This document shows, piece by piece, positions 5,105-51,846 of a stretch of 64,000 bases of DNA (the first letter of the stretch is position 1; each line of letters begins with the position of its first letter). Made by a program: the position numbers and the translations under genes. The stretch comes from a virus (taxonomy: Duplodnaviria; Heunggongvirae; Uroviricota; Caudoviricetes), in IMG/VR virus record IMGVR_UViG_3300033069_002010; one strand, written 5' to 3'. The notes beneath the pieces are model-generated. The model made no database searches. It was not told the origin of the DNA and was given only the letters and a program-made list of their open reading frames with translations.

Positions 5105-6193
5105 ATGAGCTGTTTTGACTTAAAAGACATCAATTCGGAACTCAACAGGGTGAAAAACGCCATCTACAAACTTCCACTGAACTACGGTAGTATCGATCTG
5201 AGCTCGAAATTCATGAAAGACAGGCAGATAGCCAAGAAGATAATGAAGGCCAAGTTTCCCAAAAAAGGAAGGTCGGAAACCGAAATAGATGACGATCTGA
5301 ACAGGATCGTCTACGGCATAGACATCAGGAAAAGACTCGGACAGTCCTACAAGCCATATATCAGCGAGGCCGAATTCGAAGACGATGCAGACCAAAGGGC
5401 CGACAATCTTGAGGTGAGCGAAGACGGGTTTGTTCCCATCCTTAGGGATAATCCGATATTCGACGACATCGCCCTACTGAAGAGCGAAATAAGAATAGCC
5501 GCTTTCCAATTGGGAGAAAAGGGACAGTCCCTCGTCAAGGACATCGTTTCACTGACATCGCTTCTGGCGTCATCCCTACCGACGATGGCAGCCCTTATCG
5601 TGACCATCCCAATACCCAACATATCGGGAGCCTTGTCGATACTACTGATAGTCCTAAAGGCCATCGAGGATTTCTTCAACAAGATAAAGGATATTCTCCC
5701 CTATCTCGACATACTTTCTAAATTGGAACTCGTAATCGGACCAATCTATTTTGACACCATACAGAGCATCCTTTGCAACTACCTGAAGATTCTAGCGGAT
5801 GTCCTCTCAAAACTGAATCAGCTTTCCGCTCCCCTGTCGGCTCTTCTCAAAGGCAAAACACCAAGTGAAAGAATCACGGATGTCAACAATGCGAAAACAG
5901 CTGTTGAGACAGCACAAAAAAACCTGAATGAAGTTGGATGGTTCAAAACAATAGACGAAACAGGAGTTTCTGTTACAGGTGATACCAACACAAGAGGGGG
6001 TGATGCCCCAGCAGTCTACAAAAGCGATTATGGGGACGGATGGATATTGAACTCAAAGAAAAACCTCTACACCACAAACAAGTTCGGATCGAGACCCCCT
6101 AAGGAAATAGATTCACTTTGGAAGGCCGATTTGGAATCCAAATGGAAGGATTATACCGACGCCATCAACAAGGCAAAAAAATTGGCGAGCTAA
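5105..6193 (+). CDS. hypothetical membrane-associated protein
   Basis: 362 aa; central hydrophobic stretch (LTSLLASSLPTMAALIVTIPIP...). Confidence 0.5.
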   Translation: MSCFDLKDINSELNRVKNAIYKLPLNYGSIDLSSKFMKDRQIAKKIMKAKFPKKGRSETEIDDDLNRIVYGIDIRKRLGQSYKPYISEAEFEDDADQRADNLEVSEDGFVPILRDNPIFDDIALLKSEIRIAAFQLGEKGQSLVKDIVSLTSLLASSLPTMAALIVTIPIPNISGALSILLIVLKAIEDFFNKIKDILPYLDILSKLELVIGPIYFDTIQSILCNYLKILADVLSKLNQLSAPLSALLKGKTPSERITDVNNAKTAVETAQKNLNEVGWFKTIDETGVSVTGDTNTRGGDAPAVYKSDYGDGWILNSKKNLYTTNKFGSRPPKEIDSLWKADLESKWKDYTDAINKAKKLAS

Positions 6194-6504
6194 ATAAGCT
6201 TGTTGTAGATCGACACAGGTCGGTTGACCTGAACCCCATGCTGCCAATTTCCGACACGAAGGGCCTGCTTGTTCTGGAACTGACCCCTCAACTGTCCAGT
6301 CTCAAGATCGGTCAGGTAAATGTGGAACTGTTCGACATAATCATTGTCGTCCTCAGGGTCCTTGAAATACTCTGGATTGGATTCGAAATCGTCGATGTGG
6401 GTCATGACCCCCATTCCCCACCCGTGGGATTTCCTGAGGATTCTAATGATCCTGGTATAGTCATACCGATCCTCAAGCCATTCGTTGAATTTCCTGATCG
6501 TCAT
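6190..6504 (-). CDS. small protein, tandem paralogue A (MTIRKFNEWL N-terminus)
   Basis: 104 aa; N-terminus is near-identical to its neighbour 6501..6833; ATGA overlap. Confidence 0.5.
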   Translation of the reverse strand: MTIRKFNEWLEDRYDYTRIIRILRKSHGWGMGVMTHIDDFESNPEYFKDPEDDNDYVEQFHIYLTDLETGQLRGQFQNKQALRVGNWQHGVQVNRPVSIYNKLI

Positions 6505-6833
6505 TTTATTTCGGTTTGATAGAGAAAGAAAAGATCCCTTTTTCCAAATCCTTGGATGATATCATCCATGAATTCCATGACCCTGACATAGGACGGATTG
6601 TCCGTATACGAGTGGTAGTTCCTGACTCCATCCTTAGCCACGGTAAGTTCGAACTCGGTCTTGTATTCCTGGTTTATCAGATCCATATACCTATCCGCCG
6701 CCTTTTCCATGCTTCGGAAAGCCTCGACATCACAAACGTCACCGTACGAATATGTCCTTATCAGAACCACGACATCACCGGTGGAGGATCCTCTTGGGAC
6801 AATCAGTTCCTCGTTGAATTTTCTTATTTTCAT
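6501..6833 (-). CDS. small protein, tandem paralogue B (MKIRKFNEEL N-terminus)
   Basis: 110 aa; shares the N-terminal decapeptide with 6190..6504. Confidence 0.5.
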   Translation of the reverse strand: MKIRKFNEELIVPRGSSTGDVVVLIRTYSYGDVCDVEAFRSMEKAADRYMDLINQEYKTEFELTVAKDGVRNYHSYTDNPSYVRVMEFMDDIIQGFGKRDLFFLYQTEIK

Positions 6834-6835: not shown

Positions 6836-8221
6836 CTAATCTGCCGATTTTGAGTTTTCGGAAACTATCTGGTTGAAATTGTCGGCCGGATCGAAACTGT
6901 ACTTGGCGGAAAGCTTTCCGCTCATCTCTCCCCCGGAGAACCTGACCGAGATGTCACATCCTATCATAGGCTTATCCCCAATCTCCATCCTTATCTTTAT
7001 CATGAAATCGTTCATTTCCTCTTCCTTGTCATCGACGACCATTTTTACGTGATAGTCGAATTTGACGTTGATGTCATCATAGTTGTCCCTGAAGAATTTC
7101 CTGGACGGGACCTGATGGAACGAGTTTCCCTTGTTTCCAAGATAGAAGACTGGTCTTTCAAGACATCCGAGCTTCTCGACTATTGACTTGACAAGTTTCA
7201 TCTTGACCCTTCCCTTGGCAAGCTTGAATCCGTCCTCGAGCTTTTCTATGTCCCCCATGCTGGTCGCGGTAAGGGATTCGGTCAGAAGGTGCTCGAGTAT
7301 TTTGGAATTCAGAATGAAAATCTTCTTTTCCATCCATTCGCGGTAGACCCTTTCCGAATCGAGGAAACACTGGTCCCGGTTTTTCCATATCTCGGACATC
7401 AGATCCGAGAATTTAAGTATATTCTTATCAAATTCCCTTATATGCTCACCTAGGTTCTTAAACCTAGGATCCCTGTGTTTCAGTTCGAAATACTCGAAAT
7501 ACCCGAGGGAATCCATTCTCTGGGGTTCTATGAACTTTTCAATGTGTATCTGGATGTTCTTGTTGGCATTCTCATACATGATCTTGACCCAGTCCTGGAC
7601 CAGCTTGTCCCATTTGTTTATGTAGGCTTCCCCATACATCTTCTCGATGTCGCTTCCGATAAGATCGTCGGCAAACGTGTTGAATGATGATGTTTTGGAA
7701 GAACTCACCGATTTGTTCAAAAAGAAACTGAACTGTCTTCCGTCCTTCAGCTCTATCACGATATCCTCATTGTGATCCATATCCTTGTTGGGACCCAACC
7801 AATATATTCTTTTTATAAGCTGCTCGCCGAGCTTCTCATCGGGAAGAAGCTTGTCGATTATGTTCCTGGCGGTTATCCTGGCATCGACAAGGTCATTCCA
7901 GTCTGTCTCTATGTCGAACTTGACGTCGTTGAACACCCCATTTATCTTGGATGTCTCGTCGTCGATGACGCATCTATCATCCACAAACTTTCCGAGATGA
8001 AGACGATTTTTCGATAGGAGAAGATTCTTGAGATCGGTAAGGAAAACCTGTGAGTTTTCAGAATATCTAGCTTTTAATCCTCTGTCAAGAACGTTGTCGA
8101 GGAACTCGTTGTTCAGGAGTATCATGGATACGCAGATTTCGGATATCAGGTTTTTAGAACTGTATTTCTTATTTGGTTCTTTATTTAGTTGTTCTAAAAA
8201 AAATTCATATCTAGTTATCAT
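6836..8221 (-). CDS. hypothetical protein
   Basis: 461 aa ORF; no recognisable motif. Confidence 0.5.
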   Translation of the reverse strand: MITRYEFFLEQLNKEPNKKYSSKNLISEICVSMILLNNEFLDNVLDRGLKARYSENSQVFLTDLKNLLLSKNRLHLGKFVDDRCVIDDETSKINGVFNDVKFDIETDWNDLVDARITARNIIDKLLPDEKLGEQLIKRIYWLGPNKDMDHNEDIVIELKDGRQFSFFLNKSVSSSKTSSFNTFADDLIGSDIEKMYGEAYINKWDKLVQDWVKIMYENANKNIQIHIEKFIEPQRMDSLGYFEYFELKHRDPRFKNLGEHIREFDKNILKFSDLMSEIWKNRDQCFLDSERVYREWMEKKIFILNSKILEHLLTESLTATSMGDIEKLEDGFKLAKGRVKMKLVKSIVEKLGCLERPVFYLGNKGNSFHQVPSRKFFRDNYDDINVKFDYHVKMVVDDKEEEMNDFMIKIRMEIGDKPMIGCDISVRFSGGEMSGKLSAKYSFDPADNFNQIVSENSKSAD

Positions 8222-8321: not shown

Positions 8322-9965
8322 ATGGATATTAAATATTTCGAAGAGGAAATTTATAAAAATAGACCCAACCGATTAAAAGAGGGATTTGTCAAAAATAATT
8401 TTCCTGAGTTCTATGAGTTCATAACTGATAAATTTATCGGAGACACTTTTTTAGAAAAATTATATATTTTCTATAAAGGTATCTCAAAATGTAAATGTGG
8501 GAACAAAAATAAATTCATATCATTCAAAACTGGGTTTAGAAAACACTGTAGTATTAAATGTTCTAGTAACGACGAGTCAACTAGAGATAGGTATAAAAAA
8601 TCATGTCTTTCAAAGTATGGGGTTGAAAATATCTCTAAAAACACAGAAATAAAAAAGAAAAAAGAAGAGACATGTATTAAAAATTATGGAGTAAAATCAT
8701 ATTTTCTCACACAGGAATTAAAAGACATCATATATGAAAAATATGGAACTGATAACGTATTCAAAAACGAGGAAATTAAGAAAAAAATATCAGATTCAAA
8801 TATTAAGAAATATGGAAATAAAGTATCTATACTAAACACACAAATAAAAGAAAAGTCCAAGAAAACACTAATCGATAAATATGGTGTTGACAGTTACTCA
8901 AAAACGGATAGTTTCAAGTTAATGATGAAAAATTATAATGATGAAAAATATAAACAATCACTCGATGATAGTGAATATGAAATTATTCACAGAAATAGAT
9001 ATATTAATACATTAAAGCATATAAAGTGTGGGGAAACATTTGATATACAAACACAACTGATAAGAAAAAGAAACAATTCTAAATCTGAAATTTGCTTAGT
9101 ATGTAATCCATTTCAACCATCATATAAGGAAAGTGAATTATTCACATGGATAAGTGAGATCCACCCAAATGTTATCCATCATTTCAGAATTAAAAAATAT
9201 GAAATAGATATATACCTACCCGATCTAAAAATTGGATTCGAGTATAACGGCCTATATTGGCACTCTGAACTGAATAAAGAAAAAAACTACCACCAGGAAA
9301 AAACAAAATATTTTAAAGAAAATGGTATACAAATATACCATATATGGGAGGATGACTGGAAATATAAACAAGACATAGTAAAATCAATTATACTCAATAA
9401 AATTAGTAAAACCCCCAATAGAATTGGGGCTAGGAAATGTAAGGTAGTTGAGGTTTCCGATAAAATATCAAAAGATTTTCTAAATAAAAACCACCTCCAA
9501 GGATTTTGTGTCTCAAAATACAGACTTGGACTAGTATACGAAGGCAATATAGTAAGTCTAATAACACTTGGTAAAAAAAGAAACGGCAAATCATCCAATA
9601 AAGAATTTGAGTTACTTAGATTTGTATCTCTGATTAATCACAACATAGTTGGTGGGTTTTCAAAATTGATAAGTCATTTTATAAAAAAATACAAACCTAA
9701 TAGAATTGTGACATATTCTGATACATCTATTTCAAATGGGGATTTATATACAAAGGCTGGATTCACATACATATATTCAACAAAACCAAACTATTGGTAT
9801 TTTCTAAAAGACAGAAGATTTAATAGATTTTCATTCAGAAAATCAAATCTTATAAAAGAAGGATTTGATATCAAAAAAACCGAGAAGGAGATAATGTTTG
9901 AACGAGGATACAATAGAATATATGACTGTGGGTCAAATTTTTATGAAATAAATCTTAATATATAA
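8322..9965 (+). CDS. modular homing endonuclease, KYGV-repeat family with Vsr-like PD-(D/E)xK nuclease module
   Basis: Repeated motif of about 33 aa ending ...KYGV(E/D)N/S...; then DIYLPDLKIGFEYNGLYWHSE...IYHIWEDDW (Vsr/DUF559-like); C-terminal ARKC...NHLQGF domain shared with 45018..46916. Strongly AT-rich codon usage compared with its neighbours. Confidence 0.7.
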   Translation: MDIKYFEEEIYKNRPNRLKEGFVKNNFPEFYEFITDKFIGDTFLEKLYIFYKGISKCKCGNKNKFISFKTGFRKHCSIKCSSNDESTRDRYKKSCLSKYGVENISKNTEIKKKKEETCIKNYGVKSYFLTQELKDIIYEKYGTDNVFKNEEIKKKISDSNIKKYGNKVSILNTQIKEKSKKTLIDKYGVDSYSKTDSFKLMMKNYNDEKYKQSLDDSEYEIIHRNRYINTLKHIKCGETFDIQTQLIRKRNNSKSEICLVCNPFQPSYKESELFTWISEIHPNVIHHFRIKKYEIDIYLPDLKIGFEYNGLYWHSELNKEKNYHQEKTKYFKENGIQIYHIWEDDWKYKQDIVKSIILNKISKTPNRIGARKCKVVEVSDKISKDFLNKNHLQGFCVSKYRLGLVYEGNIVSLITLGKKRNGKSSNKEFELLRFVSLINHNIVGGFSKLISHFIKKYKPNRIVTYSDTSISNGDLYTKAGFTYIYSTKPNYWYFLKDRRFNRFSFRKSNLIKEGFDIKKTEKEIMFERGYNRIYDCGSNFYEINLNI

Positions 9966-9983: not shown

Positions 9984-10964
9984 TTGAAACACATAAAATC
10001 ATACAGGGTAAAATCATACCAGATTTTCGAATCTAGAACAGAGACCAAATTTGTGAACGTGGACTCGCTAGATGAGTTCAAAAAGTCATTTGAAGAGGAA
10101 TTCAAAAACGATCAGGGATGGACGGAAAAATTCGGGATATGGGATAAGTATTTCATAAACGGGACTTTCGAGGAATCGAAATACCTAGTATGTGATGGAG
10201 AAATAGTCGGTGGATTTCTGATCTATCATTCAGACATGTCGACATACTGCGACCACATCAGAAATTCCGAAACCACATCGGATATCAAAATTCACAGGAA
10301 TCCAGATGATTTCAGGGACGAGTCGGGGATCTATCTCGAATACATTTTCGTAAAACCAGAATGGAGAAACCAGGGATTGGGGAAACTGATGATATCCCAC
10401 ATAGAAAGCATCGGATACGATTACATGTGGGAAATGTCGGTTGAAAAGAAAGCATCGGGATACTGGATTGACAAGATAAAACGGGATATCCTGATGGAAT
10501 ACGAGGACTCCACCGAATCATTCGGAAGGACTTTCATGACATATAAGATTCTTGATAAAAAAATACTCGAAATAAAAAAAAATAAATGGAATCAATTCAA
10601 AGATATGTTCATCAAGATAGATGAGGATGAATACGATGATATTAAAGAAAAATGGAGGGATAGGAAGGAACAAATTACTAGATGGGAACTGAAATGGTTA
10701 TCCGATAATGACCTTATAGTAGATAAATATAATGATATATTAGGACGAGAAACATTTAACTACCTGACATTCAGTAAGTGGGGTTATCGTCTGAGCTTGT
10801 CGAAATATGATGATGGTTGGTTTTTAGTAAGGACTGGTAAAAAAAGTGAAACAACAACCGCTGACTTTGGTTTCAGAAAATACTTCAAGTGCGATCAATT
10901 TGATGGATTAAAAGCTTTGGTTAGGGAATGGATTAAGGTAAGGGGCAACCTGAAAAGTAAATAG
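9984..10964 (+). CDS. GNAT-family acetyltransferase domain protein
   Basis: Motif A-like FVKPEWRNQGLGKLMISHIE; 326 aa with an extra C-terminal domain. Confidence 0.5.
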   Translation: MKHIKSYRVKSYQIFESRTETKFVNVDSLDEFKKSFEEEFKNDQGWTEKFGIWDKYFINGTFEESKYLVCDGEIVGGFLIYHSDMSTYCDHIRNSETTSDIKIHRNPDDFRDESGIYLEYIFVKPEWRNQGLGKLMISHIESIGYDYMWEMSVEKKASGYWIDKIKRDILMEYEDSTESFGRTFMTYKILDKKILEIKKNKWNQFKDMFIKIDEDEYDDIKEKWRDRKEQITRWELKWLSDNDLIVDKYNDILGRETFNYLTFSKWGYRLSLSKYDDGWFLVRTGKKSETTTADFGFRKYFKCDQFDGLKALVREWIKVRGNLKSK

Positions 10965-10987
10965 TTTGGAAATATAATATATACGAC

Positions 10988-11620
10988 ATGAGATATCTTA
11001 AACCATACCTGAAATACCTGGAATCCCTTCACATCGATCTTTCGATAGTGACCGTCGACATAAACGAATCACTCGGGGTTTTCTACGAGAACATACTCAA
11101 ATCGATAGGAGCCGAGGAGCAGGACATATACGGGACATTCAACCTTCCGAAAGACGACTTTGCCGACAAGCTGAATCTTGACCTCCTGACCAACAATCCC
11201 GAGTTCATAAACTCACTGTCGTCTATAGGACTGAAAAAATCAAACCTTTACAGCACCGAGGATTTTGAGACGTTTGTCAACAAGCCTTCAAGGTTTGTCC
11301 TGATTTATAGGGTTGAGGCAAACGAACTGGAAAATCCGACATTCATACTCTTCCAATCCTACAACCAGACTTTGGACAAGTGGGAGGATTCGAAGCTTTT
11401 CAAGGTCACCGGGGACATAAAGACCTTTTACGACAAGCTTTCCTCAAAGGTTATCGAGGTCGAGGACGGGGACAGCAAATACATCTACAACTCTTCCAAC
11501 GGAAACGAATGGATACTCCAGAATACCGAAAAGGAAAACGACACATTCAAGAAATATTTCAGGAAGGACGAGTTCGAGAAACTGATAAACGACAGGAAAG
11601 TCAAAATAAACATCATATGA
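10988..11620 (+). CDS. hypothetical protein (MRYLKPYLKYLES N-terminus)
   Basis: 210 aa; ends ...II* with the junction ATCATATGAGACAC into the next gene. Confidence 0.5.
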   Translation: MRYLKPYLKYLESLHIDLSIVTVDINESLGVFYENILKSIGAEEQDIYGTFNLPKDDFADKLNLDLLTNNPEFINSLSSIGLKKSNLYSTEDFETFVNKPSRFVLIYRVEANELENPTFILFQSYNQTLDKWEDSKLFKVTGDIKTFYDKLSSKVIEVEDGDSKYIYNSSNGNEWILQNTEKENDTFKKYFRKDEFEKLINDRKVKINII

Positions 11621-12450
11621 GACACGTAGAATCTTTTGAAAGCTTCATATTGGAAACCCTGAAATCGGATGACATAGACCTGGTCGAAAGGAAGCTTGAC
11701 ACCTTCTTCAAATCCAAAGGGTTCAACAAAAAGGACATGTTCAATTACGTCAATTTGCCACATTACACAATCCATTCTGATAGAAGACTAATCAGAAAGG
11801 AGATTGAAAAATTGGAAAATCCGACAGAGGAAACAATTGAACTTTATAAAAAACACAATGTCGACATCAATAAAAGTCTTCAATATTACAAGGATGCCTT
11901 GGAACAACATAAAAAAGGGGATATTTTTATTTTCACGTCACCAACCAAAAAAATAACCCCAGAATTCGTAGACGAATTTCTCAATTTGATAAAAAGCATG
12001 GGATATTTCGTAGCTACAGCCGGATCGTTCGAAACGAAATTGAAGGACAAGACCAAGATCAGGGAATATCTTCTCAGAAAAGGAAGAGGAGGCATACCGA
12101 ACAATATATCAATCTCAATTGAACCTTATTATGACACCCAAATCGAATTCGATGGTGAATATCTCTACCATACGACACCCAAAAAGGCATTGGACAAGAT
12201 AATGAGGGTCGGACTAAATCCCAAGTCAAAAAATACGGTCAGTTTCTATCCCGAAAGGGTTTATCTGTCACCGGATATGGAAAGTATGGAAAACATACTG
12301 CCCCAGTTGAAGGACAAGAAAAAAGATGAGGAATACGTCAGGCTAAGAATAAAGAATTTCCCTGGCTTGAAACTTTATAGGGACGTCAGGTTCAAAGGGG
12401 GATTCTACACATACAACTCAATACACCCGAAATACATAGAGATCATATGA
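11617..12450 (+). CDS. hypothetical protein; weak Tpt1/KptA-like C-terminus
   Basis: Start reassigned to the ATG at 11617 (MRHVESFESF...). The track ORF 11380.. is an upstream in-frame extension across the preceding gene. The C-terminus LYHTT...RVYLS loosely resembles the RNA 2'-phosphotransferase HGT...HLS region. Confidence 0.45.
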   Translation: MRHVESFESFILETLKSDDIDLVERKLDTFFKSKGFNKKDMFNYVNLPHYTIHSDRRLIRKEIEKLENPTEETIELYKKHNVDINKSLQYYKDALEQHKKGDIFIFTSPTKKITPEFVDEFLNLIKSMGYFVATAGSFETKLKDKTKIREYLLRKGRGGIPNNISISIEPYYDTQIEFDGEYLYHTTPKKALDKIMRVGLNPKSKNTVSFYPERVYLSPDMESMENILPQLKDKKKDEEYVRLRIKNFPGLKLYRDVRFKGGFYTYNSIHPKYIEII

Positions 12451-12956
12451 GACACCTGAAACGATTCGAATCCGTCACGACAGTCGAAGATTATCTTTAC
12501 AACCTATACGACACCGATCCTTACTACAAGACCTCGATTGGGGAAGATGTCCTGTATTTCGAGTTCGAATTCGATAGACCGAAGGAAAACATATACGAAA
12601 TATCCGAACAGTATTTCAAATCAAGAAGATTTAGGGATTATGTGGTCACGCACGAGGAGACGGATCTTGGATATCGGGTACTTGTCGTCAAAAAGGATTT
12701 TTACGAAAGACATACAGACTTACTTATCCAGAACATCAGAATGGATCCCCATCCGATAAACAAGGGACTCTCCAAAGAATTCCTGATATTCCCAAATGCG
12801 AAAATTGCCAGGCTCCCGAACAACTGCAGTCTGGCATATGGAATCAACCATTACATCAAGTGGGAATTCTGGCCGATGGACGATGTCGAAGATCCGATCA
12901 CAACCTACAGCGAAATATATCTGCAACTGCTTATTTACAGGCACTGCATCAGATAA
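12447..12956 (+). CDS. hypothetical protein (MRHLKRFES N-terminus)
   Basis: 169 aa; ATGA overlap; its first 27 nt are 24/27 identical to the start of the 44451 gene. Confidence 0.5.
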   Translation: MRHLKRFESVTTVEDYLYNLYDTDPYYKTSIGEDVLYFEFEFDRPKENIYEISEQYFKSRRFRDYVVTHEETDLGYRVLVVKKDFYERHTDLLIQNIRMDPHPINKGLSKEFLIFPNAKIARLPNNCSLAYGINHYIKWEFWPMDDVEDPITTYSEIYLQLLIYRHCIR

Positions 12957-13560
12957 TCTGTTTCTTGATATAGGAAAGTATTATCATTTTTCTGACCTCA
13001 CTGTCCTTCTGCTGATGCCAGTTCCAGGTGAACGTGTTTTCCAGAAAGGCCGATCGGTTCTTGATATCTCCAATCTCACCCTTTATCCGATCCGCCTCGT
13101 CTTCCGATATGTCGAACGGTATGTTAAGCTTGTCGCAGATGCTGAGCATCTTGATAAGATTGTCGGTGTCATAGGCCTGTTGGGCCTCAAGATAAAGACT
13201 GTTCAGATACAAATCGTTTCTCTTGTCGGGATGGGTTGATTTGACAACCGAACGGTATAGGTTTTTTAGTTTCGGATCCTTGGTATTTGAAACATAATCG
13301 CCCTCAATGGGGACGGGATCGGATTCCCGAACGGGAACCTCGACAGTCTTAATGGGATCGGGAAAGTTCCTCTGTGACGTTTTCTCATCAAAAACTGATT
13401 TCAAATCGGGGTGCGATTCCAGAAACAGATTGACATCGTTTATGAATTCCTGATCCAGATGGGTTAGATATTCGGATTTGAACTGGAGATCCGAACTGAC
13501 GAAATCGAATTCCTTTATTAGTCTGGTGACTTCCAATTTTTTTAGGTGTTCCACATCCAT
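12949..13560 (-). CDS. J-domain (DnaJ-like) protein
   Basis: LKNLYRSVVKSTHPDKRND...EAQQAYD contains the HPD tripeptide in a J-domain-like context. Confidence 0.5.
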   Translation of the reverse strand: MDVEHLKKLEVTRLIKEFDFVSSDLQFKSEYLTHLDQEFINDVNLFLESHPDLKSVFDEKTSQRNFPDPIKTVEVPVRESDPVPIEGDYVSNTKDPKLKNLYRSVVKSTHPDKRNDLYLNSLYLEAQQAYDTDNLIKMLSICDKLNIPFDISEDEADRIKGEIGDIKNRSAFLENTFTWNWHQQKDSEVRKMIILSYIKKQII

Positions 13561-13610
13561 ATATATCGAAAACCAACAAATATGATTAAAAAATTTTTAT
13601 ATATAGTTTT

Positions 13611-14171
13611 ATGAATAACATGAATATGGAAGAACTGGTTCAATTAAGAACCAAAATGATCTTGGAAGGCAGGGATGTCACCGATATCAATTTCCTGATC
13701 GATTCGAAGGAAGAGGAATACCTCGACCACATCTTTGAAGGGACTTCAGGAACAGGCGGACCTTCGGGAGCTGCAGGAGCGGCGACCACAGGAATGGGAG
13801 GTGGTGGTGTCGCATACGGAACCGCAGCGGTTTCCGGAATGGGAGCGGTGATCAGCCCACAACCGTCATCACATGCTGGACAGACAATAAGCCCAGGATA
13901 CGAACAGGGAGGAGGAAAAACAGGATCGGGAGACATCGGAGTCCCATACAATACCGGTGGAACCAAGGTATTCCAGAAAGTTCCCGTGGACAACAGAAGA
14001 GGAAACAGCAAAAGAAGGAAAAACAAGATGTTGGCCGGTCTGAAAGGAATGTTTACAAAGAGACAAGATTTCACGGCAGGACAGGGAGAACAGCCTAAAT
14101 CCCCTAAAATAATGAACTTCCAGAACTTCAAAAAGGATGATCTGATGAAGATTAAAAAAGTAAGCCAATAG
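13611..14171 (+). CDS. glycine-rich low-complexity protein
   Basis: 186 aa; a G/A/T-rich segment of about 60 aa followed by a basic C-terminus. Confidence 0.4.
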   Translation: MNNMNMEELVQLRTKMILEGRDVTDINFLIDSKEEEYLDHIFEGTSGTGGPSGAAGAATTGMGGGGVAYGTAAVSGMGAVISPQPSSHAGQTISPGYEQGGGKTGSGDIGVPYNTGGTKVFQKVPVDNRRGNSKRRKNKMLAGLKGMFTKRQDFTAGQGEQPKSPKIMNFQNFKKDDLMKIKKVSQ

Positions 14172-14172
14172 G

Positions 14173-14631
14173 ATGAGACAAATCAAATCATTTTTAGAAT
14201 ACTATGATATTACTTACCACATCGGGGAACCGAAACTCGATTCCAGAAGAAAACAGGACATAGAGACAACCAACAAACAGATGATTACCAAGGATTGGTT
14301 TAAGAGTCACCCATTCCCCGGAGTCACAAAGGTGGTGACCCATGACAAGTCGGTCGACATCTATTTCGGAAGGGATTCGTACATATCAATCTACGCACCG
14401 GGAACAGTCGAATATTCGAAAACCGGAGAAACCGGAACCGTTCGGAAGAAATCCTCACAGGAATCAATCACATGGATGATGCGGGGAAGCGACAAGGATG
14501 ATGTCCTTGACAACAAGGAGGAATTCATATCATGGGTTGACAAGCTTCTCATAAAATTCGGAATGGACAGGAGTGTCCTGAAAGACCTTGATAGGACAAT
14601 AGAAGAAAACAGGCGCATTTACAGACACTAA
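14173..14631 (+). CDS. hypothetical protein (MRQIKSFLEY N-terminus)
   Basis: 152 aa. Confidence 0.45.
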   Translation: MRQIKSFLEYYDITYHIGEPKLDSRRKQDIETTNKQMITKDWFKSHPFPGVTKVVTHDKSVDIYFGRDSYISIYAPGTVEYSKTGETGTVRKKSSQESITWMMRGSDKDDVLDNKEEFISWVDKLLIKFGMDRSVLKDLDRTIEENRRIYRH

Positions 14632-15017
14632 CCGTTCAGCAAATCGTCTATCTTAGAATCCCTTTTACTTTCCAAGACCAGAGCCATTAGGTTCTGGTTT
14701 TTTTCCATATCGGAAAAGACCGGATAAAGACGGAAATAATTGGGATATCTTTCCAAGATTTTCTCAAACTCTTCCAAACTCACATCACCCTGACGATCTA
14801 TCTTGAACGATTCAAACAGGGCCTCTTTTTTTTCGGTCTCCCAGTCTCCTCCTTCGGTTATTTTCCGAAAGAACCCATCAACTATTTCACAATATCCAGA
14901 AATCATTACTAGATGTATCTTAGAATCGAATATCGAAAACTCATGTACCCCAATCTTAATCTCAGGGACAAAAAAATCATCATCTAGTTTGGATTCTAAC
15001 ATACCAATTATAAACAA
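14628..15017 (-). CDS. hypothetical protein
   Basis: 129 aa; convergent with 14173..14631. Confidence 0.4.
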   Translation of the reverse strand: MFIIGMLESKLDDDFFVPEIKIGVHEFSIFDSKIHLVMISGYCEIVDGFFRKITEGGDWETEKKEALFESFKIDRQGDVSLEEFEKILERYPNYFRLYPVFSDMEKNQNLMALVLESKRDSKIDDLLNG

Positions 15018-22723: not shown

Positions 22724-23743
22724 ATGCAGATCAGAAAATACGAATCATTCATCGAGGAACCAGTAAACGAGGAACTTATCGGGGAAATAATAAAAGCGGC
22801 CAAGGGAGCACTAAAGGGGTTCCTGACCAACATAACCACCCCCTTCAAAAACCTGAAGGATGACTTCAAAAAAGGTCTGAAAACCGAACAAGCGAAGACC
22901 AGATTCATTCAGGGTCTTGACACAATATTGAAAAATGCCACCGATGGTATACAGAAGGCCAAGGACGAAGCCGAAATAAACTCGATGACGGACGCTTTCT
23001 TCAAGCAGATAGCCGAACAGGAAGCCGATTTCGACAAGGAAATAAAATCGATCAAGGAAGGTGCCGAACAGACACCAGGAACTAGAGGACAGGCAAAGAA
23101 CGCGATGATTGCTGGAAAGGTTATGATGGGAATGGTAAAGGACCAGTTTCAAAAGATGAAAGTAGAATTCGACAAGAGGTACGCATCTGCAAAAGACTTG
23201 GCAGCAAAGAAACAGGTAGCCATACAGAGACTAAGGGACACGATTGAAACAACCAAAAAGAAGCTCAACGATCCAAAAACCTTAGAAACAGCAATCCAGA
23301 CATACAAAAACGAAAACAAGATTGATGGTGGATCATCAGCCGGAATTTCAGTTGATATACTAAAGACATACAATTCCACCAAATCGGAAGAATTGGTTGG
23401 AAAGGAAGTCAGATACAAAACCAAAAAATACGACCCCAACAAGAAACCAGAAGAGCAACCGGAAAACATAGGGAAATTGAAAGTTCTTAGAGTAGATTCA
23501 GACGGAATTTTCTTTGATGGGGAAAGGGAAGACTTCAAGAAGCCGTTTGACCAAATCCTCCCCACTACTGAATCGGGAGCGAATGCAAAAAAAGCACAAG
23601 AAGTACTAACAAGAATCAAAAACGATGATGATAAAATGGGAAAGATCGCCAAGTTCGCCGAGTTTGTAGAAAAAGACGAAAATAAGGATAAGGTTGCCGA
23701 AATAGAAAAAATAATAGGGGGATTAACAACCCCAACTGCATAA
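22724..23743 (+). CDS. lysine-rich charged protein (MQIRKYESFIEE N-terminus)
   Basis: 339 aa. Confidence 0.5.
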   Translation: MQIRKYESFIEEPVNEELIGEIIKAAKGALKGFLTNITTPFKNLKDDFKKGLKTEQAKTRFIQGLDTILKNATDGIQKAKDEAEINSMTDAFFKQIAEQEADFDKEIKSIKEGAEQTPGTRGQAKNAMIAGKVMMGMVKDQFQKMKVEFDKRYASAKDLAAKKQVAIQRLRDTIETTKKKLNDPKTLETAIQTYKNENKIDGGSSAGISVDILKTYNSTKSEELVGKEVRYKTKKYDPNKKPEEQPENIGKLKVLRVDSDGIFFDGEREDFKKPFDQILPTTESGANAKKAQEVLTRIKNDDDKMGKIAKFAEFVEKDENKDKVAEIEKIIGGLTTPTA

Positions 23744-27347: not shown

Positions 27348-27398
27348 AGAATGTAAAAATATGAAAAATAATACTGAAAAAAAAAATATATATACTCT

Positions 27399-27881
27399 AT
27401 GATTTTAAGATATAGAAAATTCATGGAGGGTTATGACAAAGATATCCTTAAAATGATTAAGGACTTAGCCGATAAGACAAATACCCTTAAAAAATCAATC
27501 ATCAAATCACTTACCCCAAATGAGGTTTATGAGGACTACTTTCTCGAATTTATCGAGAATGAAAGTTTCACTTACCATATCTATAACACACACAATATAT
27601 TAATGACCATTGACCTTAAAAAGAAAATGCATAGACCCAAAAATATCAAATCTGAAACAGAAAGATACCTTAGGAAATCATCGATGATAATCAAAAGACT
27701 GGAAAGCATGTTCCCAGACTCAAGGTGTCATTTCGAGATGAAACTAAACGGAAAGGTTCAGGCTATACAGAGGGGTTATGACCGAAAAGATGATATCCTT
27801 ACATTTACCGGAATCGGAGATCCTAACCCATACGAACCTAAGGGAACCGTAATCGTCAAAATAACCTTCCATATAGCATAA
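27399..27881 (+). CDS. hypothetical protein (MILRYRKFMEGY N-terminus)
   Basis: 160 aa. Confidence 0.45.
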   Translation: MILRYRKFMEGYDKDILKMIKDLADKTNTLKKSIIKSLTPNEVYEDYFLEFIENESFTYHIYNTHNILMTIDLKKKMHRPKNIKSETERYLRKSSMIIKRLESMFPDSRCHFEMKLNGKVQAIQRGYDRKDDILTFTGIGDPNPYEPKGTVIVKITFHIA

Positions 27882-27910
27882 AAAATACCGGTTAGACCGG
27901 TATTTTTTTC
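27881..27910. terminator. bidirectional intrinsic terminator
   Basis: A5, stem TACCGGT/ACCGGTA, then T7, between convergent genes. Confidence 0.6.
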
Positions 27911-29367
27911 ATCATACTACCAATTCTATCCGAAACTTCGGTTTTTGGGAGTATAGACATCACGGTCATAAGATCTGGTCCCGGAACCCCACCCGTAAGG
28001 GCCATCCTCAAGTCAGGCATAACCTTTCCCATCTTGATCCCTAGATCCTGACAAATGTCATGGATTGACTGCTTGATAGAATCAACAGTCCAATCGATTC
28101 CATCAATATTCCCGAGAAAGACATCAAACACCCGAATGAAATCAGGATTTGTCTTATCCGAACTGACCCTGACTGGATTTACGAATATGTCAACCACCGA
28201 TTGGAGATCCGTCGTGAAAACACTTCTTTTCTTAGCAAGGTCAATAATCCTCGATTTGTCGGAGAGACTGAAATCGGTTCCTTTGAAATCGACGCGAGTC
28301 ATCAGGTAATCGTCAGACCTCAGGTTATTGAGATACCACGAGTTGAAATGTTTTGCCTTGTCCATATCGAACCTAGCTCCGTGCTTGTGGACACGATCAA
28401 GGGAGAACTGAGAGATCAGATCATCCATAGAAAATATTTCATTTGTTCCAATAGGAGACCAACCTATAAGACTCAGGTTGTTTATGAACACATCAGCGTC
28501 AAATCCATATTCCTTCCAACCATCAACCCATTTTCCATCGGAATCCACATACCCGATTGGAGAGATCGGAATACCGTATTTGGAGGCTGTCCTCTTGGAA
28601 AGCTTTCCCTTACCATCCGGGTTCATGATAAGGGGAAGATGACCGAAAGTCGGAATATCCCATCCGAAAGCCTTGTAGAGGAGGATATGGAAAGGTGTTG
28701 ACGCGACCCATTCCTGTCCTCTCAGGACATGGGTGACTCCCATATCATGATCGTCGGATGTGTTGGCCATGTGATAACTGGCAATACCGTCGGACTTCAG
28801 GAGAACCTTGTCATCCAACTGATTGGAGCTGATAGTGATATCCCCGAGTATAGCATCGGTGAACGTGATATCAACATCGGTAGGAACCGCGAAACGAACC
28901 ACAAACTTATCTCCACTAGCGAGACGGGAGTCAACATCATCTTTTGCAAGGGTAAAAGAATTTTTCATGCAGAGACGGGTGGCTGCATCATACTTGAAAT
29001 TGGGAACGGACTTGTGGGCCTTATCCAAATCATCCTTAGTATCAAACGCGTAATAAGCAAATCCTTTGTCGATAAGGAACTTGATCTTGTCCGAATAATT
29101 CCTTTCAGTCTGGATGAAGGAACCTATGGTAGGATCTGGGTTCCAATAGGAGGCATCAGGTTGGATTCCTAACCAATCACACATCCTTTTGAAATAATCA
29201 AGGAAATTTGGGTTGTAACGATCACGGTCGGTATCCTCGAGGCGAACCAAAAACCTACCACCCGTCTGTTTGGCAAGGAAATAGTTGTAGAGAAGGGTTC
29301 TAACATTTCCGAGATGAACAAACGGTCCAGTCGGTGACGGCGCTATCCTTGTTACTATTTTACGCAT
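27892..29367 (-). CDS. gltX: glutamyl-tRNA synthetase, bacterial type
   Basis: RIAPSPTGPFVHLGN (HIGH region), THVLRGQEW, GKLSKR (KMSKS); C-terminus GKVMPDLRMALTGGVPGPDL matches the bacterial GluRS tail. Start moved to the internal Met (MRKIVTRIAPSPTG) because the upstream 44 codons are hydrophobic and non-homologous. Confidence 0.9.
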   Translation of the reverse strand: MRKIVTRIAPSPTGPFVHLGNVRTLLYNYFLAKQTGGRFLVRLEDTDRDRYNPNFLDYFKRMCDWLGIQPDASYWNPDPTIGSFIQTERNYSDKIKFLIDKGFAYYAFDTKDDLDKAHKSVPNFKYDAATRLCMKNSFTLAKDDVDSRLASGDKFVVRFAVPTDVDITFTDAILGDITISSNQLDDKVLLKSDGIASYHMANTSDDHDMGVTHVLRGQEWVASTPFHILLYKAFGWDIPTFGHLPLIMNPDGKGKLSKRTASKYGIPISPIGYVDSDGKWVDGWKEYGFDADVFINNLSLIGWSPIGTNEIFSMDDLISQFSLDRVHKHGARFDMDKAKHFNSWYLNNLRSDDYLMTRVDFKGTDFSLSDKSRIIDLAKKRSVFTTDLQSVVDIFVNPVRVSSDKTNPDFIRVFDVFLGNIDGIDWTVDSIKQSIHDICQDLGIKMGKVMPDLRMALTGGVPGPDLMTVMSILPKTEVSDRIGSMMKKIPV

Positions 29368-29419
29368 ATGGGGAACGTTGGTTTTAATGTATAAGAATAC
29401 AAAAATAGTCAAAATTGAC

Positions 29420-30265
29420 ATGAAAACAAAATTTATATACGCCCTAAACGATCCCAACACCCATGAAGTGAAATATATCGGAAAAACAAATAACCTCAAA
29501 AAAAGACTACAGAGTCACCTGTCAAATAATCAGCTATCATCGGCAACAAGGAAAAACAATTGGATCATCTCTCTATTGAGGGATAATAAAATACCCATAA
29601 TCGAACTATTAGACGAAGTGCCTGAAAATGAAATAGACTTCTATGAGATATTCTACATATCATTATTCAGGTCATGGGGATTTAATCTATTAAATGGGAC
29701 AATTGGTGGAGATGGATTCGACTGGACAGGGAGAAAACACGATCCCATATCCAATTTAAAAAACAGAATAAACAGCCCCCATAGGAAATCGGTTGCCAAA
29801 TACGACATGAATGGAAATCTTCTCGATAAATATCATTCCTTGAGAGAGGCCGGTATAGAGAACAATATGGAAAAAGCCAACATATCCCGATGTTGTAGGA
29901 ACATACTTAAAACCTCAGGTGGTTTTAGATGGGAGTTCATAGAAAATATATCGGAACATGTATTCGAAACTCCAATCAATAGAGTTGAGAAAATTAAAAA
30001 ACCGAGACTCGATTCAAGACTGAAAAAAATTGATGTCTATAAGTTAGATGGGACGTTAATAGACACATGTGATAGTTTATCAAAAACTTCAGAAACACAC
30101 AATTGTCATTGGTCTCTAATAAAAAAATGCTGTGATAAAAAATCATTTCACCAGACAAAAAACCTAACATTCAGATTCATGGAGATGCTTTTGACTATAT
30201 CCCCCATAAAAATTATAGGAATGAAAAGACGTATAAAATTCAGATGTTCAAGGACGGAGACTTAG
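29420..30265 (+). CDS. GIY-YIG homing endonuclease with NUMOD1-like DNA-binding repeats; C-terminus frameshifted
   Basis: MKTKFIYALNDP...KYIGKT...R...H (GIY/YIG/Arg); two NUMOD1-like HTH units in frame; AAAATTGA lies immediately upstream. Confidence 0.75.
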   Translation: MKTKFIYALNDPNTHEVKYIGKTNNLKKRLQSHLSNNQLSSATRKNNWIISLLRDNKIPIIELLDEVPENEIDFYEIFYISLFRSWGFNLLNGTIGGDGFDWTGRKHDPISNLKNRINSPHRKSVAKYDMNGNLLDKYHSLREAGIENNMEKANISRCCRNILKTSGGFRWEFIENISEHVFETPINRVEKIKKPRLDSRLKKIDVYKLDGTLIDTCDSLSKTSETHNCHWSLIKKCCDKKSFHQTKNLTFRFMEMLLTISPIKIIGMKRRIKFRCSRTET

Positions 30266-32911: not shown

Positions 32912-33032
32912 AAAAATGATTTGATGATTTCCTACTCTTTGATGGGATTTTCGGATTACTCCCTGTTATTTTGGCGCCAATAACCTTACAAAGGTAAATT
33001 TTTTATCTTAATAAAACAAAAAACAATAAAAA

Positions 33033-33416
33033 TTAAACCACACCTCTTTTCCTAAGATGTCGAAGACATGGTTCAATAAAAAAATCAGCATATTGTTCAG
33101 CCTCTATCTCATATGGATGATACTTATAAAGATGTATTTCTGATAGACGGTGGTATTTGTCAACATCTTTTTTCCTAGGCATCTGGAGAAAATGTGTGTA
33201 TTCATGAATGATTGTACCAATGATATCCTTACGATGACGACAGGTATTCAGGAATAAAGTAATCTCCTTATTCTCATATTCCCCAAATCTCTGTTTATAC
33301 CTCTTGTCAGTATTTATTTTAAGTTTTGGATACCTCTTTATTGGTGTCCCCAAATGATGACAACACCAGTTGAAGGTTTCCTCTGCTATAAGAGCAGACT
33401 TTTCGTTATATTTCAT
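33033..33416 (-). CDS. SprT-like putative zinc metallopeptidase
   Basis: EITLFLNT...IIGTIIHEYTHF has an HExxH motif in an SprT-like context; 127 aa. Confidence 0.4.
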   Translation of the reverse strand: MKYNEKSALIAEETFNWCCHHLGTPIKRYPKLKINTDKRYKQRFGEYENKEITLFLNTCRHRKDIIGTIIHEYTHFLQMPRKKDVDKYHRLSEIHLYKYHPYEIEAEQYADFFIEPCLRHLRKRGVV

Positions 33417-40528: not shown

Positions 40529-40759
40529 TTAAAAATCAGGAACTTGTATCTCAGGACCAACTCTCTCTATATCATCAATATAGATACCCATAGAAGAAGA
40601 ATCCCCCATTCCACCAGGAAGAAAACAACAATCATCATCATATTTGGAATGCATGTACCAACAAGGTGTGGGACTTTCATACCCACGTATCAGAACCCAA
40701 TACCAACCAGACTTGGTTGGAAATTCGACACTCTCAAACACTTTTTTAATTTTAGACAT
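40529..40759 (-). CDS. small hypothetical protein (MSKIKKVFESVEF N-terminus)
   Basis: 76 aa. Confidence 0.35.
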   Translation of the reverse strand: MSKIKKVFESVEFPTKSGWYWVLIRGYESPTPCWYMHSKYDDDCCFLPGGMGDSSSMGIYIDDIERVGPEIQVPDF

Positions 40760-42697: not shown

Positions 42698-42720
42698 TGA
42701 AACAAAGTTAATCAAAATTT

Positions 42721-42737: not shown

Positions 42738-43235
42738 ATGAAAGACATTAAAAAGTTTGAGGCGTTTGGTGACATTTATCCCGAAACCAGGTTGGACTAC
42801 GACTGGAAAAGGGAATTTCTCGAAATACGGGAACTTTTCTACAACATCGAGGAAAATCTACCCGATGAGAGTTTGGTCGACTTTTCGGCTGGATGGAGGT
42901 CATCGATGAATAACCAAATGTTCCCATGTTACATAAATAAGGCGGGCGAGATTATGGGGAATGACGAAGTGATAGAAAAAACCTGCGGCACATACGCCAA
43001 CTTTCTCATAAGAATCACTATAGAACCGAGATTCAAAACCCGTAACTACTCCCCATTCAAAATCTCAAATTCCGAGTCCTTTTTCGGGGAAAACGCTCAA
43101 ATCGTGGTAGACATAATATCAAGACTCAAATACATAACAAAAGGACTGAACGAATACTCAATGGGGATAACATTCAAAGATAATCTCATCTATATATATT
43201 TTTTAAGAAACAACAACGAAAGAAAACAGATATGA
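42738..43235 (+). CDS. hypothetical protein (MKDIKKFEAF N-terminus)
   Basis: 165 aa. Confidence 0.45.
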   Translation: MKDIKKFEAFGDIYPETRLDYDWKREFLEIRELFYNIEENLPDESLVDFSAGWRSSMNNQMFPCYINKAGEIMGNDEVIEKTCGTYANFLIRITIEPRFKTRNYSPFKISNSESFFGENAQIVVDIISRLKYITKGLNEYSMGITFKDNLIYIYFLRNNNERKQI

Positions 43236-44450: not shown

Positions 44451-45023
44451 ATGAAACACCTGAAACTCTTCGAATCCAAGAACTGGGAAATAGTATTCGA
44501 CCCACACATCACAAGAATAGAATGGAACGGTCTGCCATCTTACCTACGCGACAAAACACTTATCGACTTCACACAGAGAGATATAAAACAAATAATCGGA
44601 TTTTTGGAGCATTTCGTCCCGATGTCAATGATTAAGATGCCCGAAAATACTGACAAAAAATTGGATTATGACCAAGGTAAATTTCGTGGTTCAATAGATG
44701 TGTCAACGGAAAGATCGAGCCGACCCAAAAACTATTATGACAATATCAATATATTGAAGTTAGATGATGAATACTTCATTGTATATTGCACCCACGGATA
44801 CCCAAGCGGACAACGAACCCAGGTATTCAAATGTGACCAAATCGAAGGACTGATCGAACTATTGGGGATGATGTTTGAGGGATATCCCAAAAAGGACTAT
44901 TCGAGCCAAAACTACATAACCAAAATAAAAAATCTAATCAATTCAATAGACATCGAAAAAACAGATCCAAAAAAACTGAAATCACTAGAGGAATTCCTAA
45001 TAAAATGGAAATCTGATTCATGA
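44451..45023 (+). CDS. hypothetical protein (MKHLKLFES N-terminus)
   Basis: 190 aa. Confidence 0.45.
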   Translation: MKHLKLFESKNWEIVFDPHITRIEWNGLPSYLRDKTLIDFTQRDIKQIIGFLEHFVPMSMIKMPENTDKKLDYDQGKFRGSIDVSTERSSRPKNYYDNINILKLDDEYFIVYCTHGYPSGQRTQVFKCDQIEGLIELLGMMFEGYPKKDYSSQNYITKIKNLINSIDIEKTDPKKLKSLEEFLIKWKSDS

Positions 45024-51531: not shown

Positions 51532-51846
51532 CTAATAGGATTCGTCGTGTTCCGCGTAGTAGTCCGACCAGTAATCGCGTAGTTCATCAATGGCCTTTGC
51601 CAAGGTATATGAATAATATCTGGTAATATTCAACGGTTCCCTTGAACCGAGTGATTTTTTAACCCTGGCGTTAAGTTCGACATTGAACTCCCCATTCATC
51701 TCATCCGCCCTGGATTTGGACTCCGATTCGGTCGGATACAGCTCAACCACCTCATTGCTGTTGCGATCATAGACGCAGAATACCTCTTCAGGCTTCATGC
51801 CTGATGAAAGGCTTTCGTTGAATTTTTTAATCTTCATATGTGACAT
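51532..51846 (-). CDS. hypothetical protein (MSHMKIKKFNESL N-terminus)
   Basis: 104 aa. Confidence 0.4.
   Translation of the reverse strand: MSHMKIKKFNESLSSGMKPEEVFCVYDRNSNEVVELYPTESESKSRADEMNGEFNVELNARVKKSLGSREPLNITRYYSYTLAKAIDELRDYWSDYYAEHDESY

Follow-up and report, generated by a model that had tools for sequence, protein, structure and literature searches.

In bacteriophage T4 the internal proteins share only a leader, and their genes lie in a hotspot of anti-restriction genes (PMC12373910; PMC3012670). This leader, the capsid-targeting sequence (CTS), needs mainly residues 4 and 7 for targeting, and residues 8 and 10 for processing; the T4 Alt protein is packaged and processed as well (PMC9026906). 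In T4-type phages, mobile promoter/stem-loop cassettes (promoter early stem-loops, PeSLs) mediate modular shuffling (PMC2839356, PMC4122927). Here, we analyzed a stretch of 64,000 nucleotides (nt), called the window throughout, from the Caudoviricetes record IMGVR_UViG_3300033069_002010 of IMG/VR, in which consecutive plus-strand genes begin with a similar short peptide, referred to below as the tag. A sequence-only reading of the window had pointed to three such genes, starting at 10988, 11617 and 12447, and had proposed that their starts hold a functional nucleic-acid element, either a recombination hotspot for cassette exchange or a leaderless-mRNA translation enhancer, or alternatively a conserved propeptide.

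We found that selection acts on the peptide, which is anchored to the initiator Met, and that the region is a hyperplastic accessory-gene array around a conserved 210-amino-acid (aa) gene of a Mahaphage-type huge phage. The tag can pass from one gene to another, and a domain that has become internal through a fusion no longer carries it. The explanation which best joins these observations, and to which we give a roughly even chance, is an accessory array whose products carry a peptide-level sorting or processing tag, with a leader resembling the T4 CTS as its most likely version.

Unrelated genes with a common N-terminal tag

The three genes comprise a core gene of 210 aa (F210) and two accessory genes of 277 aa (F278) and 169 aa (F169), listed with the other features in Table 1. 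An independent pipeline predicted the same three genes in the Logan assembly of the same genome. By BLASTP the bodies of the three are unrelated, and when profiles of the 277-aa and 210-aa families were compared with hhalign, the 10 tag columns aligned and nothing else did (probability 1.9%). BLASTP, hhalign and the gene starts thus agree with the sequence-only reading that unrelated bodies stand behind a common N-terminal tag. That the three are diverged paralogs, with the N-terminus as their least diverged part, would fit their tandem, same-strand order and common start, as well as a weak BLASTP match of gene 10988 to the C-terminal half of gene 9984 (E = 2e-4 in a tiny database). However, as neither comparison found similarity beyond the tag, the folds differ (GNAT versus Tpt1-like) and each family has its own orthologs and its own lengths across loci, we regard this origin as extremely improbable.

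The tag consists of Met, Lys or Arg, an aromatic residue or His, Leu or Ile, Lys, any residue, Phe or Tyr, zero to four residues, a hydrophobic residue and Glu-Ser. Residues and codons were tallied over 62 non-redundant tags from 38 related loci. Position 2 is Lys/Arg in 48 of the 62 and position 3 is Tyr/His/Phe/Trp in 53; position 4 is Leu/Ile/Val in 57 and is written with eight codons (TTA, ATA, CTT, TTG, ATT, CTG, ATC, CTA), while position 5 is Lys/Arg in 53 and position 7 Phe/Tyr in 56. Glu-Ser comes next, at positions 8/9, 9/10, 11/12 or 12/13; its codons are GAA/GAG and TCA/TCT/TCC/TCG/AGC. At positions 2 and 5, AAA is strongly favoured.

A chance origin of the shared tag was ruled out by its enrichment at N-termini. 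The core [LIVM][KR]x[FY] lies within the first 10 residues of 13 genes, against 2.4 expected from its internal frequency, and a stricter core in 6 genes against 0.44, while the strict Met-anchored pattern is nearly absent from protein interiors. N-terminal enrichment is also seen in LR756501, a 735-kb genome, and the tag is found on about 15-20% of genes both there (12 of 59) and in the window. It stands on unrelated folds, namely a GNAT acetyltransferase, a Tpt1/KptA-like fold and ORFans. In pT24, a cultured Bacteroidetes jumbo phage with the baseplate wedge gene in common, the tag is absent (3 loose hits in 69 genes). Judged by eye, the tags are not Sec, Tat or lipoprotein signal peptides: they are 9-13 residues long, charged throughout, and hold neither a hydrophobic stretch nor a Cys, where such peptides have a basic n-region followed by a hydrophobic stretch of 7-10 residues or more and, in the Tat and lipoprotein types, a twin-Arg motif or a lipobox Cys, respectively.

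Tagging is broader than first noted. It includes genes 9984 and 14173 of the same block and about ten further window genes with a looser form (I-R/K-K-F-N-E), e.g., MQIRKYESF. A second flavour of the tag, M-x-I-R/K-K-F-N-E, was observed as an identical codon string, AAATTCAACGA, at three minus-strand starts (6475-6504, 6804-6833 and 51808-51837). Orthologs of the ~470-aa backbone gene on the left of the array start MKVIRKYHLFLEAQ and MRWLRGYELFLEAQ.

The families differ in how the tag is kept. No segment of the fast-evolving 169-aa family (28-62% identity to orthologs) is conserved better than the tag, in which M1 and F7 never vary. The slow-evolving 210-aa family shows the reverse, a body more conserved than its tag, yet M1, K5, E12 and S13 are kept. 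The 277-aa family counts 61 homologs, all with a tag-like N-terminus, and among their sources are huge-phage genomes of 484-735 kb and metagenomic contigs as long as 624 kb; all of the 37 aligned homologs end in ...PKYIEVI or ...PKYIEII.

For the 277-aa protein we obtained an AF2 model, built with an alignment of 37 sequences that conserve the tag. Its mean predicted local distance difference test (pLDDT) score is 84.9, with about 90 in the body and values below 50 for most of tag residues 1-15; in this model the tag is an unpacked extension outside the fold. Foldseek matched the model to KptA/Tpt1 (E ~5e-6, probability 1.0, TM-score 0.43-0.46 on target length), and a Pfam match to Tpt1/KptA lies below the cut-off (E = 0.04). 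In the family H185 and R214 are invariant; the catalytic tetrad of Tpt1/KptA is Arg-His-Arg-Arg. For the 277-aa protein we predict an NAD-dependent ADP-ribosyltransferase fold resembling Tpt1/KptA.

Table 1. Tagged genes, their neighbours, junctions and a promoter-like box in the 64,000-nt window
Feature	Position	Strand	Remarks
Two small loose-tag genes	6190..6833	-	MTIRKFNEWLE, MKIRKFNEEL; share AAATTCAACGA with 51532-51846
Left backbone gene (~470 aa)	6836..8221	-	loose tag MITRYEFFLEQ; beside the array in most related loci
Homing endonuclease DUF7487	8322..9965	+	untagged; GC 27%; between left backbone gene and array
GNAT::'KCDQFDG' fusion	9984..10964	+	TTG start MKHIKSYRVKSYQIFES; tag MKHIKSY..IFES
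Promoter-like TATAATATATAC box	10973..10984	+	3 nt 5' of the F210 ATG; TTTAATATATA family before many genes
Core 210-aa gene, F210	10988..11620	+	tag MRYLKPYLKYLES at 10988-11026; always ends ...INII
Junction 1, ATCATATGAGACAC	11612-11625	+	I-I-stop of F210 overlaps M-R-H of the next gene (ATG-AGA-CAC)
Accessory gene F278 (277 aa)	11617..12450	+	tag MRHVESFES at 11617-11643
Junction 2, same 14-mer ATCATATGAGACAC	12442-12455	+	I-I-stop of F278 overlaps M-R-H of F169
Accessory gene F169 (169 aa)	12447..12956	+	tag MRHLKRFES at 12447-12473
Right backbone gene	12949..13560	-	untagged; convergent with the array; weak J-domain match
Variable tagged gene F152	14173..14631	+	MRQIKSFLEYY; coupled to the conserved 186-aa gene
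Loose-tag gene	22724..23743	+	MQIRKYESFIEE
Loose-tag gene	27399..27881	+	MILRYRKFMEGY; directly 3' of a TATATATAC box
Loose-tag gene	40529..40759	-	MSKIKKVFESV
Loose-tag gene	42738..43235	+	MKDIKKFEAF; directly 3' of TTTAATATATATATTAAT
ORFan gene	44451..45023	+	tag MKHLKLFES (44451-44477); adjoins a homing endonuclease gene
Loose-tag gene	51532..51846	-	MSHMKIKKFNESL

Codon use, junctions and promoter-like boxes

The sequence-only reading drew its nucleic-acid element from two identical stop/start junctions, from a 24/27-nt match between the starts of genes 12447 and 44451 (ATGAAACACCTGAAACTCTTCGAATCC), and from nucleotide conservation that seemed to exceed the needs of the peptide. The first two are plain facts of the sequence, since the same 14-mer stands at both junctions and the match was recovered on re-reading. 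The third fails as a general property. Across the 62 tags synonymous codons vary freely: as many as eight of them occur at a conserved position, and both TCN and AGC stand for Ser. This check of synonymous sites had been chosen beforehand as the one able to overturn the element, and it went against it. Because synonymous sites vary freely, we conclude that selection acts on the peptide.

Codon sharing gives the same picture. At identical residues, orthologous tags use the same codon in 49% of cases, no more often than unrelated tags do, whether these come from different genomes (56%) or from a single genome (62%). Two-fold-degenerate residues, together with the preferred codons AAA and GAA, account for this high baseline. 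Concerted evolution of the tags as a general process was also considered and rejected, codon sharing being 0.62 within and 0.56 between genomes. Codon identity at identical residues is 52% in tags and 42% in bodies, a gap attributed to composition without an amino-acid-matched control; once two-fold-degenerate composition is considered, synonymous conservation of the tags is no higher than that of the bodies.

Some observations do favour an element of this kind, with the peptide as its by-product. At same-residue positions of the window tags the same codon is used in 32 of 44 cases, against 17.6 expected from bulk codon usage. Gene 11617 has an identical 14-mer on either side, and it is this very gene that is missing from the closest relative. 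A related locus, L006, holds a 52/57-nt repeated block, described below. The tags of 12447 and 44451 share six of six codons (P = 0.0027, or ~0.04 corrected for 15 pairs), and as a sign of a DNA-level event their nucleotide match is no more than suggestive. Its origin cannot be traced through orthologs because, among 5.8 billion proteins, gene 12447 has one non-identical homolog and gene 44451 none. We also asked if the 44451 tag is foreign to its own body, but the difference in third-position GC content (0.62 versus 0.41, P = 0.2) is not significant.

The exact 14-nt repeat is unremarkable by itself, as Markov-1 simulations give about 22 identical 14-mer pairs expected by chance in the window, where 77 were observed; what is notable is its placement at two successive gene junctions. 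The form of the junction follows the neighbouring gene. Before a plus-strand gene the 210-aa gene ends in ATA-TGA overlapping the next ATG, or in TAATG, and before the convergent DnaJ-like gene it ends in ATT/ATC followed by TAA/TAG. Since the ending varies with the gene that follows, 'ATCATATGA' is the ordinary translational-coupling form of the family-specific ...INII end. At such overlaps Arg at codon 2 can only be AGA or AGG, because the shared ATGA leaves A as the sole first letter of that codon. Adjacent genes covary in their first residues, MRH/MRH in the window and MIH/MIH in L006; these are two genomes, and the covariation is partly forced by the same overlap. The identical junctions and the 24/27-nt match are mainly by-products of the shared peptide, the ATGA overlap and a narrow choice of codons.

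No structural sign of a recombination site was found. The junctions at 11612-11625 and 12442-12455 have no hairpins, terminators or inverted repeats, the scan counts being at the level of shuffled sequence; an Rfam scan gave no match within the array, no recombinase was found in the array, and no integrase among the array genes or their neighbours. With neither inverted repeats at the junctions nor an integrase in the array or beside it, this is not an integron-like cassette array, in which attC-type imperfect inverted repeats would mark every cassette end. At gene starts, the structure of tagged and untagged genes is alike (-2.3 and -3.3 kcal/mol, respectively, against -7.8 in internal windows), and so is their A/T content. 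Taken together, a nucleic-acid element at the gene starts, be it a recombination site or a translation enhancer, is very unlikely, and is largely refuted by the synonymous-site data. The leaderless-mRNA enhancer in particular is weak, as two of the three genes are translationally coupled, tagged and untagged starts are alike and pT24 is tagless.

The same data bear on the view that the tag is an optimum for initiation and early elongation, i.e., an N-terminal ramp by which poorly adapted accessory genes would gain in yield where the host does not use Shine-Dalgarno pairing. Residues 3-5 of the K/N-Y/I type, and the tripeptides KFS and KIH, raise expression of an E. coli reporter (PMC6920384), and the tags read K-H/Y-L/I-K. 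The preference for AAA at positions 2 and 5 would suit a ramp, as would the starts of window genes, which are all unstructured and A/T-rich and show no Shine-Dalgarno motifs upstream. However, untagged genes are equally low in structure and equally A/T-rich, the window tags use codons containing G/C (CAC, CTG, CGA, TCC), and pT24 does without the tag. Neither the invariant aromatic residue at position 7 nor the variably spaced Glu-Ser is explained by a ramp. We therefore consider a ramp rather unlikely, and if the tag were merely an expression optimum, it would be of modest interest.

Upstream of the 210-aa gene, we infer the TATAATATATAC box to be a promoter; a sigma-70-like match lies at 10950-10978, and within the array such a box stands before genes 9984 and 10988 only. 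The motif TTT(T)AATATATA(C/G) was seen 3-20 nt upstream of many starts, e.g., at 13594-13605, 27385-27395, 42720-42735 and 49555-49565. Its conservation extends to relatives (L005, L003-L009) and to LR756501 (735 kb), and it is probably a promoter specific to the phage that gives very short leaders. As a mark of an expression class of tagged genes it was rejected, for it precedes tagged and untagged genes alike, the baseplate wedge gene included. The promoter-proximal first array gene (GNAT or KCDQ) keeps a TTG start across genomes (window 9984, L002 20, L003 7550), while downstream coupled array genes have ATG starts in all. A separate 41-nt repeat family of the Bacteroidetes promoter form TTTG-N20-TAnnTTTG (TATCTTTG) was found at 33412-33452, 38875-38915, 39254-39294 and 56602-56642 (minus strand); with 4 nt between the end of the -7 box and the ATG, the mRNA of gene 33033-33416 may be leaderless. 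The 41-nt repeats suggest a Bacteroidetes host and a separate, host-type promoter class.

Gene turnover around the 210-aa gene

The 210-aa gene served as the probe for relatives and yielded 38 related loci (numbered with the prefix L) from IMG/VR, JGI, ENA, Logan and GenBank. It was found in all 38 and in Mahaphage genomes of 634-735 kb. It was the only probe that worked, as IMG/VR scans with 12447, 11617 and 44451 gave no relatives; a megablast search of positions 10000-15000 against phages gave no matches either.

The loci have a common backbone, made of the ~470-aa gene (-), the 210-aa gene (+), the DnaJ-like gene (-), the 186-aa gene and guanylate kinase, and about 20 of them, LR756502 included, show this minimal form. 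In other loci extra plus-strand genes stand on either side of the 210-aa gene. The window array reads endonuclease, GNAT::KCDQ fusion, 210, 277 and 169, where numbers are product lengths in aa. L002 has GNAT, 210 and 169; L003 has KCDQ, 210, 182 and HNH; L006 has 144, GNAT, KCDQ, 210, 120, 278 and 173; L009 has 125, 210 and 278; and L022, L026, L028, L029, L030 and L035 have other newcomers. The newcomer genes are all tagged (e.g., MKYLKKFEDN, MKFIKLFENF, MKHLKRFNES, MQIKKFLKE), and the 210-aa gene has at least six different neighbours on the right and at least six on the left. Every insertion or deletion among the 38 loci coincides with a gene boundary. The claim of a variable, cassette-like array is thereby borne out, gene content at these exact junctions varying among the related loci.

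Most loci, among them L003 and the closest relative L002, have no 277-aa gene, and the 152-aa gene at 14173 is missing from many relatives. The endonuclease at 8322-9965 is inserted in the window genome only, among the loci examined. Between the window and L002 the 210-aa protein shows 91% identity and its neighbours 62-66%. Mosaic recombination as the cause of this difference was rejected in favour of differences in rate, because the divergence ratio (~3-4) is similar in all genome pairs.

Several events at the DNA level can be read from these loci. The KCDQ and 210-aa genes of L006 (likewise of L007 and L008) have a 52/57-nt block in common, made of the TATATA box plus the tag MS/NYLKKYTNFLES; immediately beyond the Glu-Ser codons identity drops to background. 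As the copied tag is of the 210-family type, a promoter-plus-tag segment was evidently copied onto an unrelated gene. L002 lacks both the KCDQ gene and the 277-aa gene; in relatives the 57-nt block stands as a direct repeat on both sides of the former, and the 14-mer on both sides of the latter. The 277-aa gene occurs in the window, L006 and L009 with a divergence similar to that of its neighbours, which makes its deletion in the L002 lineage the more parsimonious inference. Fusions are a further outcome. Gene 9984 joins a GNAT acetyltransferase (9984-10547, Pfam match) to the 'KCDQFDG' domain (10575-10961), which are separate genes in L006, with loss of the stop codon, the promoter and the second tag; in tblastn its residues 16-145 match the L006 gene 4546-4983 at 78%. 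The protein P0007, from a 121-kb JGI contig, is a fusion of KCDQ with the 277-aa family. In both 9984 and P0007 the fusion lies at a tag boundary, and the internal tag was lost or degraded.

Of the proposed recombination hotspot a part thus survives: short homologies have sometimes served as substrates of recombination, as seen in the promoter and tag copy of L006 and in the repeats that flank the genes missing from L002. In the mechanism we propose, short homologies, sometimes extended by the TATATA box, would allow occasional recombination, leading to gene deletions, tag replacement and fusions. Exchange of tags appears rare, because each gene family keeps its own tag flavour.

The window phage has genomes of 634-642 kb as its best-matching complete relatives, and its own genome is probably above 600 kb. 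Its gp6-like baseplate wedge and its 210-aa protein are each ~61% identical to those of LR756502 (642 kb); the corresponding values are 59% (wedge) and 53% (210-aa protein) for LR745206 (634 kb), and 37-38% for the two proteins of LR756501. These relatives are the largest genomes of the Mahaphage clade, with Bacteroidetes as predicted hosts (PMC7162821).

Besides the wedge, the window encodes glutamyl-tRNA synthetase (27892-29421), a tryptophanyl-tRNA synthetase-like protein (50500-51462; this assignment rests on reading its N-terminal sequence only) and a CCA-adding enzyme (41489-42775), and ARAGORN found zero tRNA genes in it. Homing endonuclease genes of the DUF7487/HNH type lie at 8322-9965, 45018-46910 and 48635-49507, and split topoisomerase genes (GyrA/GyrB-like) are interrupted by inteins (59339-62062 and L043). 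An Rfam DUF805b RNA motif (32929-32964, minus strand; 44.3 bits against a gathering score of 35.6) lies a short way upstream of gene 31034-32911, which encodes an SPFH/Band-7 membrane protein. In the DUF2201 metallopeptidase/VWA gene 46980-48581, a low-complexity stretch is encoded by tandem 9/15-nt repeats (CCCTG/TTGACC units) at 47815-47990.

Possible roles of the tag and comparison with known systems

A tag that is anchored to Met, independent of the fold, unpacked, exchangeable and dispensable in fusions has the signature of a short linear signal for a common partner. The tag would be a sorting or processing signal read by that one partner, most likely a capsid-targeting leader removable by a protease, in the manner of the CTS of T4 internal proteins, and the array would be a changing repertoire of packaged and injected effectors. 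By this analogy the conserved propeptide or leader is the best lead among the earlier readings.

Several points weigh against this interpretation. Capsid targeting of the tagged proteins is drawn by analogy with T4, and the likeness is at the level of the pattern, position 3 being Thr in T4 and His/Tyr here. With about 15-20% of genes against a handful in T4, the tag may be too widespread to signal packaging. A hydrophobic-x-Glu site is not what the short tags (K-R-F-E-S) offer, and Glu-Ser is often missing in the 277-aa family. The unpacked state is supported by a single structure model. No genes for head morphogenesis or a prohead protease were found among ~38 scanned window proteins or among the precomputed Pfam matches of two 10-kb extensions; the gp6-like baseplate wedge was all that the search yielded. 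As for exchange, recombination within the tag is documented by few cases in which the direction (deletion or insertion) is unproven, and the tag flavours stay with their families.

The partner could also be another one, such as a J-domain protein with host Hsp70, a protease for which the tag is a degron, or a phage compartment. A conserved but unpacked, basic-hydrophobic N-terminal peptide is what such a docking motif would look like, every locus has a conserved DnaJ-like gene adjoining the array, and the high share of tagged genes suits a general cytoplasmic partner better than packaging. However, the J-domain match of the right backbone gene is weak (E = 0.0019, below the Pfam cut-off), and its adjacency may just reflect the conserved backbone; docking of this kind seems unlikely to us. 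A wider version of the sorting signal, possible but put forward tentatively, is that the tag would be a lineage-wide address label of the largest known phages, which would send a large set of fast-changing proteins, including a GNAT acetyltransferase and a Tpt1-like ADP-ribosyltransferase, into the capsid to be co-injected or else to another phage-made compartment. If so, the repertoire of injected or sorted effectors of uncultured Mahaphages could be read from genome sequence, and tag-mediated recombination would be a route for plugging in new effectors.

Huge phages above 600 kb are known from metagenomes only, and the majority of their genes lack a functional assignment. Through a Met-anchored motif on about one gene in six, concentrated on accessory genes, a functional class of their proteins can be approached from sequence alone. 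Mahaphage genomes of 634-735 kb share this motif; a cultured jumbo phage from the same host phylum does not have it. Should the CTS-like leader prove true, a mechanism known from one phage genus would be extended to the largest phages, candidate injected anti-defence or takeover enzymes would be identified, and a ready-made tag for cargo loading would be at hand. Apart from the role of the tag, the compared loci document gene-by-gene growth and shrinkage of a hyperplastic region at stop/start overlaps. Within the literature searched we found no earlier description of the tag motif in huge phages.

Among known systems, the translational ramp motifs (PMC6920384) resemble the tag in being Met-anchored, position-specific, rich in K/Y/I/H and acting at the amino-acid level across synonymous codons. 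Their effect, however, lies at codons 3-5, whereas the tag reaches an aromatic residue at position 7 and Glu-Ser at positions 8-13, and is lineage-specific.

The PeSL-mediated system (PMC2839356, PMC4122927) is similar in that accessory genes are gained, lost or replaced at precise gene boundaries, in hyperplastic regions of a conserved large myovirus-like genome, and in that short regulatory repeats at gene starts provide homology; here these are the TATATA box plus tag (L006) and the direct repeats related to the L002 losses. Bounding of the PeSL type was found for the 277-aa gene (by the 14-mer) and for the KCDQ gene (by the 52/57-nt repeat of L006), both of which are absent from L002. Unlike in PeSLs, there is no stem-loop or terminator at the junctions, the repeated unit enters the coding sequence and is constrained by the peptide, and most junctions are stop/start overlaps without a promoter.

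The closest parallel is the T4 leader. In both systems a Met-anchored leader of about 10 residues is the sole similarity of otherwise unrelated proteins, with a hydrophobic or aromatic residue at position 4, Phe at position 7 and Glu thereafter (MKTFKEFTS/MKTYQEFIAE in T4, MKHLKLFES/MRHLKRFES here). Positions 4 and 7, the T4 targeting residues, are the most conserved of the tag, which is a statement about sequence conservation only. In the T4 genome ipII and ipIII both start MKTYQEFIAE, with 32 identical nt and a shared upstream region, and ipI starts MKTFKEFTS; the leader and upstream sequence that are nucleotide-identical in T4 are nearly so for the KCDQ and 210-aa genes of L006 (52/57). As in the T4 ip loci, the tagged genes lie in polymorphic loci, here 38 of them. 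The T4 prohead protease follows the rule L/I-x-E and cuts after Glu. In the long tags (IFES, MFES, YLES, FLES) the residue at P3, three before the candidate cut after Glu, is hydrophobic, and in the short ones (KRFES) it is Arg or Lys. Unlike in T4, the spacing from F7 to Glu-Ser is variable, the predicted host belongs to the Bacteroidetes and the genome is probably larger than 600 kb. Finally, T4 Alt is an ADP-ribosyltransferase, and one of the tagged proteins here has a predicted ADP-ribosyltransferase fold.

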